A DNA stretch of 64,000 nt from Escherichia coli (lineage in GTDB: Bacteria; Pseudomonadota; Gammaproteobacteria; Enterobacterales; Enterobacteriaceae): the NCBI RefSeq assembly GCF_046105845.1, contig NZ_CP151004.1. One strand, given 5' to 3'. Positions 23,240-28,353 of this stretch are shown here, one piece after another. Position numbers and translations under genes: made by a program. The notes under the pieces were generated by a model that was given only the letters and a program-made list of their open reading frames with translations, was not told the origin of the DNA and made no database searches. The stretch's first letter is position 1. Each line of letters begins with the position of its first letter.

Positions 23240-25501
23240 TTACCCCCGACGCAAATTCTGCGCCGCCTGCACCATGTTCGCCAGTGCCGCGCGGGTTTCT
23301 GGCCAGCCGCGCGTTTTCAGGCCACAGTCCGGGTTGACCCACAGACGCTCTGCCGGAATGCGTTTTGCCGCTTTCTTCAGCAGGGCTTCAATCCATTCCA
23401 CGCTCGGTACGTTTGGCGAGTGAATGTCATAGACGCCTGGACCAATTTCATTTGGATAATCAAACTCTTCAAACGACTCCAGCAACTCCATGTCGGAACG
23501 CGAGGTTTCGATGGTGATGACGTCTGCGTCCAGCGCCGCAATCGAATCCATGATGTCGTTGAACTCGCAGTAACACATGTGAGTGTGGATTTGTGTGTCA
23601 TCTTTCGCCACGGCGGCGTTGATACGGAAAGCCTCCACGCCCCACTGGAGATAGGCATCCCAGTCGCTGCGACGCAGCGGTAAACCTTCGCGCAGCGCCG
23701 GTTCATCAATCTGGATGATGCCAATTCCAGCGGCTTCCAGGTCCGCCACTTCATCACGCAGCGCCAGCGCAATTTGTTTGGCGATGGTTTCACGGCTGAC
23801 ATCTTCACGCGGGAATGACCAGCAGAGTATGGTTACCGGCCCCGTCAGCATCCCTTTCACCGGTTTGTCAGTCAGCGATTGTGCATATTTCGCCCACTCC
23901 ACGGTAATTGGTGCCGGGCGGCTAACGTCACCAATGACAATCGGCGGCTTCACGCAGCGGGAACCGTAGCTCTGTACCCAACCGTTTTGCGTAAAGACAA
24001 AACCGTCGAGATGCTCGCCAAAGTATTCCACCATGTCATTACGCTCGGCCTCGCCATGCACCAGCACATCCAGACCTAAACGTTCCTGCTCAACAATGGC
24101 CTGCTTGATATGTTCCGCAATGCCCGTGCGGTAGTTGTTGGCGTCGAGATTACCCTTTTTGAAATCCAGACGCAGGGTACGAATTTCCGTGGTTTGCGGG
24201 AAAGAACCAATCGTGGTGGTCGGCCACGCGGGCAGTTTAAAACGCGCACGCTGGGCTTCAGCACGCACTTCATAGACATTCGCACGCTGACTGTCCTGAG
24301 CGGTGATCGCCGCCAGACGCTTTTCTACTGCCGGATTATGTACGCGGGTTGAGTGACGACGCGCCTGAATCGGGGCGCTCCACTCTGCCAGAGCTGCCGT
24401 GTCACCACTGTTCAGCGCATCGCGCAGCAGTGACAGTTCATGGCATTTTTGTAGGGCGAAGGCAAACCAGCTTTTCACTTCTGCATCAAGACGCGTTTCC
24501 ACGCTCAGGTCGATGGGGCTGTGCAGCAACGAGCAGGAAGATGCCACCCACAAATCACGTTTGCCGACAATGTCCTTAATTTGCGCATATTTCTCGGTAA
24601 GATCGGCGCGCCAGACGTTACGACCATTGATAAGACCCGCAGACAGTAGCCAGTCTGAAGGCAGACGCTTGTGCAGTTCAGCAACGTCATCTTTACCATG
24701 TACAAGGTCCACATGCAGCCCCTGAACAGGCAGCGCAGTAATCGTGTCGAGGTTTGGCGTTACGCCTTCAAAATAGGTAGTCAGCAGCAGTTTCACCTGG
24801 CCCTGGAGCGCGTCGTAAGCGGGGTTGTATGCGTCCAGCCACGCCTGCGGTAGTTCCAGTACCAGCGCTGGTTCGTCGATCTGTACCCACTCAATGCCGC
24901 GTTTTGCCAGTTCTGCCAGTACTTGCTGATAAACCGGCAGAATGTCGTTTAGCAGGCTCAGGCGGTCAAACTGTTCACCTTTCACTTTCCCAAGCCATAG
25001 GTAGGTAACCGGCCCCAGCAGCACAGGTTTCACCTTGTGGCCCAGCGCCAGCGCCTCGTCCACTTCCTCCAGCAGCTGCGTCCAGGTCAGTTTGAACTGC
25101 TGGCCTTTAACGAACTCCGGCACCATGTAGTGATAGTTGGTGTTAAACCATTTGGTCATTTCCGCTGCCGCCGCAGGTTCGCCAGTCGGCGCACGTCCAC
25201 GACCAATACGGAACAGGGTGTCGATATCTACCGAACCATCTTTGTTCTGATGACGCGCTGGAACGTTACCCAGCAGCAGACTGGTGGTCAGGACATGATC
25301 GTACCAGGCAAAATCGCCCACCGGCAGCAGGTCGATACCCGCTTGCTTTTGTTGATCCCAGTGACGGGCACGCAGTTCACGCCCTACTGCCAGCAGTTCT
25401 TCACGCGTGGAGTTCCCCGCCCAATAACTCTCTTGCGCTTTTTTCAGCTCGCGACGCAGGCCAACGCGAGGGAAACCGAGGGTGTGATTCAATATTGTCA
25501 T
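23240..25501 (-). CDS. metE: cobalamin-independent methionine synthase
   Basis: 753-aa [33 protein letters not shown]... recognised as MetE. Confidence 0.95.
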
Positions 25502-25634
25502 TTTTCTTCCTCTAATTATATGTAAATCCTATGGATTTTGAATTTAGGGAAGGCGGCAAGTTTATTCATCCCCGGGAGCTTACTGAAGTAAGTGACCGGG
25601 GTGAAGAAACGCAGCCAACGCACCATAAATTTAA

Positions 25635-25680
25635 AAGACGAAGGATTTTAGCCGTCCAGATGTTTACACATCCATAATTG
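25635..25680. promoter_or_regulatory. putative MetJ operator (tandem degenerate met boxes) in metE-metR divergent control region
   Basis: Tandem 8-bp units resembling the AGACGTCT met box (AGACGAAG, AGCCGTCC, AGATGTTT) in the 235-bp metE/metR intergenic region. Exact register uncertain. Confidence 0.3.
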
Positions 25681-25736
25681 GCGGTTACTGTATATTCCTC
25701 AAGCGCAAATTATTCATGCCGAAGTGAAGGACTTTC

Positions 25737-26690
25737 ATGATCGAAGTAAAACATCTGAAAACGCTACAAGCGTTGCGGAACTGCGGCTCGCTCGCAGCCG
25801 CTGCGGCGACGTTGCATCAAACGCAATCCGCCCTGTCTCACCAGTTTAGCGATCTGGAACAACGCCTTGGCTTCCGGCTATTTGTGCGTAAGAGCCAGCC
25901 GCTACGCTTTACACCGCAGGGAGAAATCCTGTTACAACTGGCAAACCAAGTGCTGCCGCAAATTAGCCAGGCACTGCAAGCCTGCAATGAACCGCAGCAG
26001 ACGCGCCTGCGCATCGCCATTGAGTGCCATAGCTGTATTCAGTGGCTGACGCCCGCATTAGAAAACTTCCATAAGAACTGGCCGCAGGTAGAGATGGATT
26101 TTAAATCGGGCGTGACGTTTGACCCGCAGCCTGCGTTGCAACAGGGCGAGCTGGATCTGGTGATGACGTCCGATATTCTGCCGCGCAGTGGCCTGCATTA
26201 TTCGCCGATGTTCGACTATGAAGTGCGTCTGGTATTGGCACCTGACCATCCACTGGCGGCGAAAACGCGTATTACACCGGAAGATCTCGCCAGCGAGACG
26301 CTGTTGATTTATCCGGTGCAGCGTAGTCGACTGGATGTCTGGCGGCATTTTCTTCAGCCAGCAGGCATCAGCCCGTCACTGAAAAGCGTCGATAACACCT
26401 TATTGTTGATTCAGATGGTTGCCGCACGGATGGGTATTGCCGCACTACCGCATTGGGTGGTGGAGAGTTTTGAACGCCAGGGTCTGGTGGTGACCAAAAC
26501 CCTGGGCGAAGGCTTGTGGAGCCGACTGTACGCCGCCGTGCGTGATGGCGAGCAGCGTCAGCCGATTACAGAAGCGTTTATTCGCTCAGCGCGCAATCAC
26601 GCCTGCGATCATCTGCCGTTTGTGAAGAGCGCGGAGCGACCCACTTACGATGCACCCACAGTGAGGCCAGGATCACCAGCGCGCCTGTAA
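25737..26690 (+). CDS. metR: LysR-family transcriptional activator MetR
   Basis: 317-aa [48 protein letters not shown]... recognised as MetR. Confidence 0.94.
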
Positions 26691-27477
26691 TAAACGTTGG
26701 CCAGTGCGGCTGTTGGTGCCAGATAGCCAGGTTTACCAGCAGCCCTGCCGGAACGTGCATATTATTCATAATGCCCAGCGTTCCGGCGTCCACCTGCGTC
26801 GCGCCGTAGTTCCACATAAAGTAGCCAATCCCGGAAGCCACCACGCCAAGAAACACCAGAATGCCCCATTGCAGCGTGGTTTGTGGCATTTTCTGCGCAT
26901 TTCCCAGCAAGAACCATGCAATCACCGCCACCAGGAACGCGCCAAGATAGAACCACGCAAATGCGTTATGCTGCGGCATCGGGCGAGTTTCCATCAGACG
27001 TTTGTAACCCACCATGCCGATGGCAAAAGTGATATTGGAGAGCTGCACCAGCAGCAGGCCAGTCCAGAAGTGGTCGGTGACCTGATCATAGCGAATAATC
27101 CCGGCACCAATCACCGCCAACAAGGCGCTAAAAGCATAGCCCCAGCGCAGACGGCGCTGACTCATGATGTCATAAATCAACGTGATGTAGAGCGGCGTCA
27201 GTACGGTGAACAGCAGCAGCTCGGAGACCGTCAGGTAGAGATAGGCGCGAAAACTCAGCATATACATCACGCCGAGCTGCATCGCGCCCACCAGCATATA
27301 CAGGCCGACCGTTTTCAGGCTATTGCCACGGGTACGCAGAAACGGCAGAAAAACGAGTGCCGCCAGGCCAACGCGCACCAGCACCGCAAAATAGCTATCG
27401 ACGTGCCCCGCAAGGTACTCGCCATAAAAGCTAAAGGAGAAGGCCCACAGAATCGTGGTGATGATAAGTAGCGCCAC
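26578..27477 (-). CDS. yigM: DMT-family membrane transporter YigM (biotin transporter)
   Basis: 299-aa ten-helix-type membrane ORF recognised as YigM; its 3' end overlaps the metR 3' end. Confidence 0.88.
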
Positions 27478-27552
27478 AATGGAAAACTCTTTGATTAACG
27501 AGTATCCATTGTAGCGAAGTATCAGGTTGACAACTGACCAAATAAAGAACGA

Positions 27553-28353
27553 TTACGATAAATAGAGCTTACGCAGATAATGCGGCACTGCGTCCTCGGC
27601 GTTAGTACCAATCACTTCCAGCTCCGGATGCAGATCTTTCAGACGCTGGTGCGCACTGCCCATAATGCAGCCTTTCCCCGCCATCGACAGCATTTCGGCG
27701 TCGTTCATGCCATCGCCAAAGGCAATGCAATCTTGCAGGCTGTAGCCCAGTTTCTTCGCCACCGCTTCCAGCGCATGACCTTTCGACACGCCGCCCGCCA
27801 TCACTTCCAGACAGGTTAAGGTAGAGAAACTGACGTTGACGCGATCGCCCCAGCGAGCGTTGATCGCCTGCTCCAGCGGCAGAAGTTGTTCATGGGAATC
27901 GCAGGTGAAGAACACTTTGCTGACGCCTTCCGGCTCCAGTAATCCCGGCTCATACAGCGCATATTTGAACACCGCTTCTTTAAAAAAGCGCATCTCTTCC
28001 GGGCGATGGCGATTCATAAACCATTCGTCGTCGCGATAAACGTTAGTAATGATGTCCGGATTGTCGTTGACTACGCCAAACAGATCGCTGGCAATATCGC
28101 GATCCAGGTTATGAGCAAAAATCAGATTGCCATCCAGATCGTGAACGCGCGCGCCATTGGAGGTAATCATGTAAGACTTAATCTCCAGATTATCGCGAAT
28201 TTGCCCCACATCAACGTGGTGACGACCGGTCGCAAACACAAAGTTGATGCCGCGCGCGGTGAGCAGCTTCAGAGTTTCTTTGGCGTAAGGGGATAACGTA
28301 TGGTCGGGAGAAAGTAACGTGCCATCTAAATCAGACGCAACAACCTGGTACAT
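27553..28353 (-). CDS. yigL: HAD-family sugar/pyridoxal phosphate phosphatase YigL
   Basis: Translation MYQVVASDLDGTLLSPDHTLSPYAKETLKLL... (266 aa) recognised; start at internal Met of track ORF, 7 nt after pldB stop. Confidence 0.9.
   Translation of the reverse strand: MYQVVASDLDGTLLSPDHTLSPYAKETLKLLTARGINFVFATGRHHVDVGQIRDNLEIKSYMITSNGARVHDLDGNLIFAHNLDRDIASDLFGVVNDNPDIITNVYRDDEWFMNRHRPEEMRFFKEAVFKYALYEPGLLEPEGVSKVFFTCDSHEQLLPLEQAINARWGDRVNVSFSTLTCLEVMAGGVSKGHALEAVAKKLGYSLQDCIAFGDGMNDAEMLSMAGKGCIMGSAHQRLKDLHPELEVIGTNAEDAVPHYLRKLYLS

Follow-up and report, generated by a model that had tools for sequence, protein, structure and literature searches.

The locus at which metR and bioP (also named yigM) converge in Escherichia coli raises the question of why two genes on opposite strands should share 113 bp of coding sequence at their 3′ ends, and of whether such an overlap is a selected device or a frozen accident. 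The locus was analysed within a single window, i.e., the whole stretch of 64,000 nucleotides of E. coli DNA under study (contig NZ_CP151004.1), and in its homologues across Enterobacterales and beyond. The evidence described below makes it very probable that the overlap is a frozen accident and not a device, ordinary in kind, though unusually long and old.

In the window, metR, which encodes the LysR-type regulator of methionine synthesis, occupies positions 25737–26690 of the + strand (317 aa), and bioP, which encodes an EamA/DMT-family biotin transporter (RefSeq, "bioP: biotin transporter"), occupies positions 26578–27477 of the − strand (299 aa, with a GTG start); both assignments are based on the open reading frame (ORF) listing, Pfam, and RefSeq. 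From the ORF coordinates, the convergent coding overlap common to both strands is 26578–26690. The first-pass annotation had placed the end of metR (+) at 26690 and that of yigM (−) at 26578, with an overlap of approximately 113 bp, and these ends are exact to the base in the ORF coordinates and in RefSeq. The order of the neighbourhood is metE/metR/yigM (bioP)/yigL/pldB, with 98.9% identity to complete E. coli genomes, and the metR–bioP region is present in 5,422 of 5,426 complete E. coli genomes at 95–99% identity. In the RefSeq annotation of K-12 MG1655, bioP is located at 4011076–4011975 and metR at 4011863–4012816, and the RefSeq annotation of strain 1190 arranges the two genes as in MG1655. 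The K-12 metR/bioP overlap (b3828/b3827) is thus the same locus with the same 113 bp, without structural difference, in another Escherichia strain.

The two frames are in phase 123:132, as derived from the coordinates and then checked in the table of per-site diversity: position 1 of metR codons faces position 1 of bioP codons, position 2 of metR faces position 3 of bioP, and position 3 of metR faces position 2 of bioP, and residue m of BioP and residue n of MetR have their first base in common if m + n = 582. The overlap is divided into three zones. In zone A (26643–26687), the variable MetR tail (residues 303–317) faces the conserved last transmembrane (TM) helix of BioP (residues ~264–279). 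Zone B (26628–26642) comprises BioP residues 280–284 (VAPRS) and MetR residues 298–302 (SAERP) and is constrained in both proteins. In zone C (26581–26627), the variable BioP tail (residues 285–299) faces the conserved end of the MetR core (residues 282–297). Each stop codon lies against conserved residues of the partner. The bioP stop (TAA, 26578–26580, − strand) is the reverse complement of the junction between MetR Phe281 and Ile282 (TTT/ATT) and is TAA in 81 of 81 sequences, and the metR stop (TAA, 26688–26690, + strand) is the reverse complement of the junction between BioP Ile263 and Thr264 (ATY/A). metR terminates in a tandem TAA TAA (26688–26693), and its stop is TGA in approximately one quarter of the species, a TAA/TGA switch that is synonymous in BioP Ile263.

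MetR carries an HTH_1 domain at residues 5–63 and a LysR_substrate domain at residues 86–288 in Pfam, and these domains, together with metE on the opposite strand at 23240–25501, i.e., divergent from metR, identify it as MetR. Its residues 1–92 are identical to PDB 5fo5 (the chain named MetR; E. coli MetR DNA-binding domain), and PDB 4ab5, the regulatory domain of Neisseria meningitidis MetR, aligns to residues 87–296, with homology stopping at 296. The structure prediction for MetR was unusable (mean pLDDT of 45.7). BioP carries EamA in two stretches, the last of which ends at residue 275, and its AlphaFold2 model is a helical bundle (pLDDT of 84.8, pTM of 0.81) in which the last TM helix falls within the overlap and residues 286–299 have a pLDDT below 50. 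Identity to the K-12 proteins is 99.4% for MetR and 99.3% for BioP, and for the latter this identity, the EamA repeats, and the model mark a membrane protein built of EamA repeats, an orthologue of E. coli YigM. Furthermore, both genes are under purifying selection, with nucleotide diversity (π) lower at codon position 2 than at position 1 and far lower at either than at position 3.

An artefact of annotation or ORF calling, in which one of the proteins ends upstream of the overlap, could draw on the observation that the Pfam domains do not reach far into the overlap, if at all (LysR_substrate to 288, EamA to 275). However, neither frame is interrupted by an earlier stop, whether in the window or in 5,422 E. 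coli genomes, both stops keep their positions across families, and the overlap contains the last TM helix of BioP; deletion of that DNA together with metR abolishes BioP function (Côté et al., 2016; PMC5120140). The artefact is effectively refuted. The first-pass annotation had made its reading conditional on both full-length ORFs being real, and this is borne out by stops at unchanged positions in Yersinia and in 70 of 80 species of Enterobacteriaceae, in addition to the effect of the metR deletion on BioP. metR and bioP form a convergent overlapping gene pair insofar as both genes are genuine, their 3′ coding ends overlap, and their stops are conserved in homologues. We hold with high confidence that both are genuine, functional genes, including their translation to the annotated stops.

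The physical overlap also bears on the genetics of the locus. Deletions of the Keio design run from codon 2 up to the seventh-last codon. A Keio ΔmetR allele would presumably remove BioP from approximately residue 271, in the second half of the last TM helix, and a Keio ΔyigM allele would presumably remove MetR from approximately residue 289 onward, so that ΔyigM phenotypes need equal caution. The loss of BioP from a Keio-style ΔmetR fits the phenotype of metR deletion, which shows synthetic lethality with bioA and sensitivity to MAC13772, an inhibitor of BioA, both effects having been ascribed to disruption of yigM with loss of biotin uptake (Côté et al., 2016, mBio; PMC5120140). Biotin transport by BioP/YigM is a result from the literature (PMC5120140 and its correction); the author correction to Côté et al. 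(2016) states that YigM was first identified as the biotin transporter by Ringlstetter (2010) and Finkenwirth et al. (2013). The metR/yigM overlap was also remarked in print in the same article and is already known, being annotated in RefSeq K-12 and published (Côté et al., 2016), and, as far as the literature was searched, the constraint analysis and the phylogenetic spread presented here are absent from that work.

The spread of the overlap was obtained by scanning a collection of species-representative genomes with BioP, which yielded the 80 closest Enterobacteriaceae species (BioP identity of 81–99%); a first homologue search gave only close Enterobacteriaceae, and outgroups were reached through a search of representatives at 50% identity and a further homologue search. 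In each of the 80 species the two genes are neighbours that converge, and the 1,741-bp unit bounded by their start codons is free of indels throughout. The overlap measures 113 bp with the standard stops in 70 species, 116 bp in seven (MetR with one additional codon), 98 bp in two (L022 and L041; MetR five codons shorter), and 68 bp in one (L033; a nonsense codon at BioP residue 285). In Yersinia, the overlap is again 113 bp with identical geometry, and in the three Pectobacteriaceae loci it measures 95–98 bp (95 bp in Pectobacterium and Sodalis, 98 bp in a Dickeya-like contig).

Other lineages have the two genes apart. In Serratia marcescens, metR and bioP are adjacent and separated by 36 bp, in Gibbsiella the gap is 327 bp, and in Erwinia toletana a DUF1456 gene lies between them. 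In these three lineages BioP comprises 286–287 aa and ends 4–5 residues past the conserved WV(A/I)(P/G), and MetR keeps its variable tail (312–314 aa in total). Outside Enterobacterales, BioP homologues have short basic tails and do not neighbour metR, as in Vibrio and Microbulbifer (~50% identity, 292–294 aa), and in this sample BioP of 299 aa was found only where bioP runs into metR. Natural truncations of BioP are known in addition, one cluster, of a Salmonella serovar (66 member sequences), having 285 aa and another (42) having 284 aa, and the total length of MetR ranges from 311 to 318 aa across homologues, with 311–314 aa in several lineages. An earlier end of one of the proteins in homologues, which the first-pass annotation had named as what would refute its reading, is not seen in the main lineage; the shorter BioP and MetR of some lineages do show that the tails can be lost. 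An over-extended ORF was considered as a separate candidate class and rejected, the shorter forms occurring only with physically separated genes or lineage-specific nonsense changes.

The accepted family tree of Enterobacterales was used for polarity. On this tree, the 113-bp geometry common to Yersinia and Enterobacteriaceae suggests that the overlap arose once, long ago, and that the genes were separated afterwards in the Serratia/Gibbsiella group and in Erwinia; the overlap would then be ancestral and the separation derived. The gene inserted in E. toletana may be an example of a route of separation. A duplication relic in Serratia and Erwinia was sought by local alignment, which performed no better than shuffled sequences, and an antisense frame in Serratia (…QTADDRRR…), which resembles a relic of the BioP tail, is only the antisense translation of conserved MetR. 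Persistence over such a time would be equally expected of a selected regulatory overlap, and this observation counts against a purely passive reading.

Where selection acts within the overlap was assessed from per-site π in 81 sequences. Outside the overlap, π at codon positions 1, 2, and 3 is 0.118, 0.049, and 0.414 in bioP and 0.081, 0.033, and ~0.38 (0.380–0.384) in metR. In zone A, π at position 3 of BioP codons, which is position 2 of MetR codons, is 0.430 versus 0.414 outside (54th percentile of 15-codon windows). Because the silent sites of BioP are normally diverse opposite the MetR tail, the tail (residues 303–317) is not detectably constrained and drifts as freely as these sites permit. 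In zone B, third-position π is 0.104 in metR (1st percentile of 5-codon windows) and 0.060 in bioP (under all 5-codon windows outside the overlap), and an invariant block of 13 nt (26631–26643) lies at this zone. In zone C, π at MetR position 2 is 0.032, as elsewhere in metR, and π at MetR position 3, which is BioP position 2, is 0.278 versus 0.384 outside (5.7th percentile); the BioP tail (residues 285–299) mostly tracks silent changes in MetR, and its own constraint is weak at most. Dual constraint is clear only at approximately five codons (26628–26642) and at the Glu299-TAA end of bioP, and in the rest of the overlap one gene is constrained and its partner is passive. The protein alignments follow the same division, MetR being conserved through …HLPFV(K/R)(S/N)AERP and unalignable beyond it, including between families, and BioP being conserved through …SLWVHRxWVAP(R/H)S and variable beyond it.

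The end of bioP is a detail at odds with a purely passive overlap. The third positions of MetR Phe281 and Ile282, which set the second base of the bioP stop and of the Glu299 codon, are invariant in 81 of 81 sequences; outside the overlap, invariance is seen at only 14 of 280 MetR third positions (5%), and at further conserved Phe and Ile codons of MetR π is 0.07–0.54. The Glu-stop end of BioP is also found in Yersinia, Pectobacterium, and the Dickeya-like contig. On the basis of the invariant third positions and the silent diversity at the 5.7th percentile, some selection on the exact end of BioP, or on an RNA feature there, is likely.

These features could also be taken to indicate that dual coding itself was selected and that both tails are functional, the acidic/basic tail of BioP in membrane insertion or regulation and the Pro-rich tail of MetR in oligomerisation. 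The invariance of the BioP Glu-TAA end despite available synonymous alternatives in MetR and the mildly reduced silent diversity of MetR opposite the BioP tail are consistent with such functions, and so is the fact that MetR retains a tail of comparable length in lineages with separate genes. However, second positions of the MetR tail evolve at the neutral rate of BioP silent sites, and this tail is unalignable between families and varies in the length of the whole protein. The BioP tail, for its part, is missing in Serratia, Gibbsiella, Erwinia, a Salmonella serovar, and L033, and it is the segment modelled at a pLDDT below 50. Selected dual coding is therefore considered very unlikely. The shorter BioP and MetR of some lineages make the tails look largely dispensable, and they are probably dispensable in E. 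coli itself.

The length of the overlap was compared with chance expectation in the 46 long ORFs of the window, using the antisense frame in which codon position 1 is opposite position 1 (123:132). Stops occur in this frame at 4.3% per codon, the median open run is 16 codons, and the probability of a run of at least 15 codons being open is ~0.52 and of at least 17 codons ~0.47. The tails of MetR and BioP past their conserved cores measure 15–17 codons. [quoted passage not shown]

This origin agrees with what is known of the class. Lillo and Krakauer (2007; PMC2174442) counted 58 convergent overlaps in E. coli, reported phase 123:132 as the commonest among convergent overlaps of at least 5 nt (49%), and described the usual origin of convergent overlaps as loss or shift of a stop codon followed by read-through to the next stop, a model that fits the chance-length tails of metR and bioP. 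As in other convergent overlapping pairs, the 3′ ends of two genuine genes overlap on opposite strands in phase 123:132, whereas metR/bioP differs in its length (113 bp versus a typical 4 nt) and is unusually old and stable, without indels in 80 species and with the same geometry in Yersinia.

The remaining question is how transcription of the two genes ends and whether their antisense relationship is put to use. The first-pass annotation had stated that no room is left for terminators between the genes, and this is so: the intergenic space is zero, and no intrinsic-terminator-like site is found in or near the overlap (26400–27000). The lone terminator-like match in 25500–27700 is located at 26291, inside metR, and such matches are fewer than in shuffled sequences. 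No bidirectional intrinsic terminator, i.e., a GC-rich hairpin with an A-tract and a U-tract between or just past the stops, was recognized, and an Rfam scan of 25400–27700 returned nothing within the overlap. With neither intergenic space nor an intrinsic terminator, the transcripts must end inside the partner gene. The antisense transcription across both 3′ ends that had been claimed holds insofar as an mRNA encoding either full-length protein must be complementary to the other mRNA over at least 113 nt; termination is possible inside the partner.

For the bioP-sense strand, such termination is documented. Adams et al. (2021, eLife; PMC7815308, supplementary file 2) list a Rho termination region at MG1655 4011704 (+), which corresponds to approximately 26849 on the − strand of the window when transferred through the indel-free K-12 alignment. 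Reads at this region amount to 98 upstream and 21 downstream in untreated cells and to 300 and 326 with bicyclomycin (Rho score of 5.07, p = 1.3e-12), as measured in 800-nt windows, so that the resolution is hundreds of nucleotides (PMC7815308). The bicyclomycin-dependent read-through in these data implies that Rho curbs the passage of bioP-sense transcription into metR, where it would be antisense. In the same study (PMC7815308), a curated Term-seq 3′ end is listed for neither metR nor bioP, and no Rho region is listed on the metR strand. Of the published data sets on 3′ ends, dsRNA, and excludons that were consulted, this study alone had a relevant entry, and the literature searched yielded no direct evidence for the 3′ end of the metR mRNA, for double-stranded RNA at the locus, or for the C-terminal peptides.

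Folding predicts two hairpins of the bioP-sense RNA (− strand) inside metR, at 26524–26563 and 26475–26508, i.e., 15–100 nt past the bioP stop, neither of them followed by a U-tract. The RNA 3′ of the stops is more structured than in shuffled sequences (z = −2.7 for metR, −3.2 for bioP). Over 81 species, 94.2% of the cells of the hairpins are paired versus 93.8% in column shuffles, with a change on both sides in only six cells, and pairing is 94% on the − strand versus 79% and 89% on the + strand, a comparison in which the structure itself was derived from the − strand.

These data bear on the reading in which the overlap is a selected device of the excludon or antisense type, where polymerase collision or RNase III cleavage would make the expression of either gene antagonize that of the other. 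The locus resembles excludons in that the genes are convergent neighbours, at least 113 nt of mRNA complementarity is required, and a terminator is absent between them. It differs in that an excludon is recognized by overlapping transcripts and reciprocal regulation that have been demonstrated, usually involving long UTRs, whereas metR and bioP overlap in coding sequence, and neither reciprocal regulation nor RNase III dependence was found for them in the literature searched. Such a device could explain why the overlap is kept in at least three families of Enterobacterales, and Rho-dependent control of the bioP-sense strand (PMC7815308), the missing terminator, and the structured, well conserved bioP-sense hairpins inside metR would suit it. 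However, the Serratia/Gibbsiella group and E. toletana separated the genes and kept both, the persistence of the overlap is explained by the mechanical difficulty of undoing it, and conservation of the hairpins is no better than in column shuffles. Moreover, metR, yigM, and bioP are not named in the supplementary tables examined of a p19 dsRNA-capture study, which is no more than an absence of evidence, and reciprocal expression data for metR and bioP were not found in the literature searched. A selected device is unlikely in our estimation. A narrower version, in which read-through from bioP is gated by Rho and the hairpins and the invariant Glu-TAA serve as 3′-end or processing signals that set the dose of antisense on metR, is judged distinctly improbable. 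Transcriptional interference between metR and bioP may occur, and antisense pairing probably has no important regulatory role.

Biotin synthesis consumes SAM, and a metabolic rationale for a link between methionine and biotin is therefore imaginable. If the regulatory device were true, methionine/SAM status would be linked to biotin uptake; nothing found demands such a link.

Under the favoured reading of a frozen accident, the history of the locus may be pictured as follows. Two functional genes would have come to lie tail to tail, with cores that abut and share approximately five codons or ~15 nt (BioP residues 280–284 and MetR residues 298–302). [quoted passage not shown] The tails thus acquired or kept (MetR 303–317 and BioP 285–299) are variable, probably largely dispensable, and mostly dictated by synonymous sites of the partner, and transcripts must end inside the partner gene, on the bioP strand in a Rho-dependent manner. 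Once formed, the overlap would be hard to undo, as an indel would shift the frame of both genes and separation would require insertion or duplication at the junction. An arrangement so hard to undo would persist, as it does in Enterobacteriaceae, Yersinia, and Pectobacteriaceae, and be resolved only in a few lineages.

For work on E. coli and its relatives, the finding means that an edit in the last ~113 bp of metR or bioP, whether by deletion, transposon, or CRISPR, strikes both genes. Genetic screens have already been confounded in this manner, a metR deletion having been scored as a biotin-uptake hit (PMC5120140). The chief value of the locus is this warning for genetics at metR–bioP, together with a tidy case of how little dual coding a 113-bp overlap may contain. 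For evolution, it indicates that a long convergent overlap can last for a very long time with little dual coding, the conserved cores sharing only ~15 nt.

The convergent genes metR (+, 25737-26690) and bioP (yigM; -, 26578-27477) share 113 bp of coding sequence, and the end of the bioP reading frame is located within metR codons. Within 26578-26583, positions 26579 and 26582, the third positions of the MetR codons Phe281 and Ile282, respectively, display zero variation across the 81 species of Enterobacteriaceae aligned over the bioP-metR unit, and these third positions set the TAA stop codon and the last codon (Glu299) of bioP. Outside the overlap, only 5% of MetR third positions are invariant. 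On the bioP strand, the corresponding sequence, GAATAAA, is an invariant motif. The bioP stop codon is additionally flanked on both sides by a 14-nt inverted repeat (arms at 26540-26553 and 26589-26602), of which the arms are 86% complementary and separated by a 35-nt spacer.

Naturally shortened forms of BioP have been found in relatives. The protein is cut to 285 aa in P0072, a homologue cluster from Salmonella serovar Gaminara comprising 66 member sequences, and to 284 aa in P0075, a cluster of 42 member sequences (locus L033); both truncations are natural nonsense changes located directly after the conserved core. Furthermore, in Erwinia toletana, bioP and metR are split by an inserted DUF1456 gene (158 aa; locus L088, 3410-3886), whereas the two genes overlap in related families. 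A Dickeya-like Logan contig (locus L083, 556-1455) encodes a BioP homologue (P0123) with a scrambled internal segment, corresponding approximately to alignment columns 214-253, which are conserved in all relatives; the sequence suggests a pair of compensating frameshifts, which would mean that the contig was misassembled here or that the gene is decaying.

Two additional features were observed on the plus strand. An ORF of 255 aa (26704-27471), in a frame different from that of metR, is antisense to nearly all of bioP; most likely it is a shadow ORF, as a gene for a hydrophobic protein can give rise to on its opposite strand. Between metE and metR, the region 25527-25645 (+) matches the full length of the Rfam model V_AS5 (Vibrio antisense RNA AS5) below threshold (28.7 bits versus a gathering score of 96; E = 0.002), and this match may reflect conserved metE-metR regulatory sequence instead of an RNA gene.

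Downstream of the bioP stop codon, two hairpins are predicted in the bioP-sense RNA (minus strand, 26475-26563; individually 26524-26563 and 26475-26508) inside the metR coding region. The hairpins are 94% paired over the 81 species, and pairing is higher on the minus strand than on the plus strand; covariation across these species was not above that of shuffles. The hairpins could be 3′-end or processing structures or a mere by-product of the conserved coding sequence.
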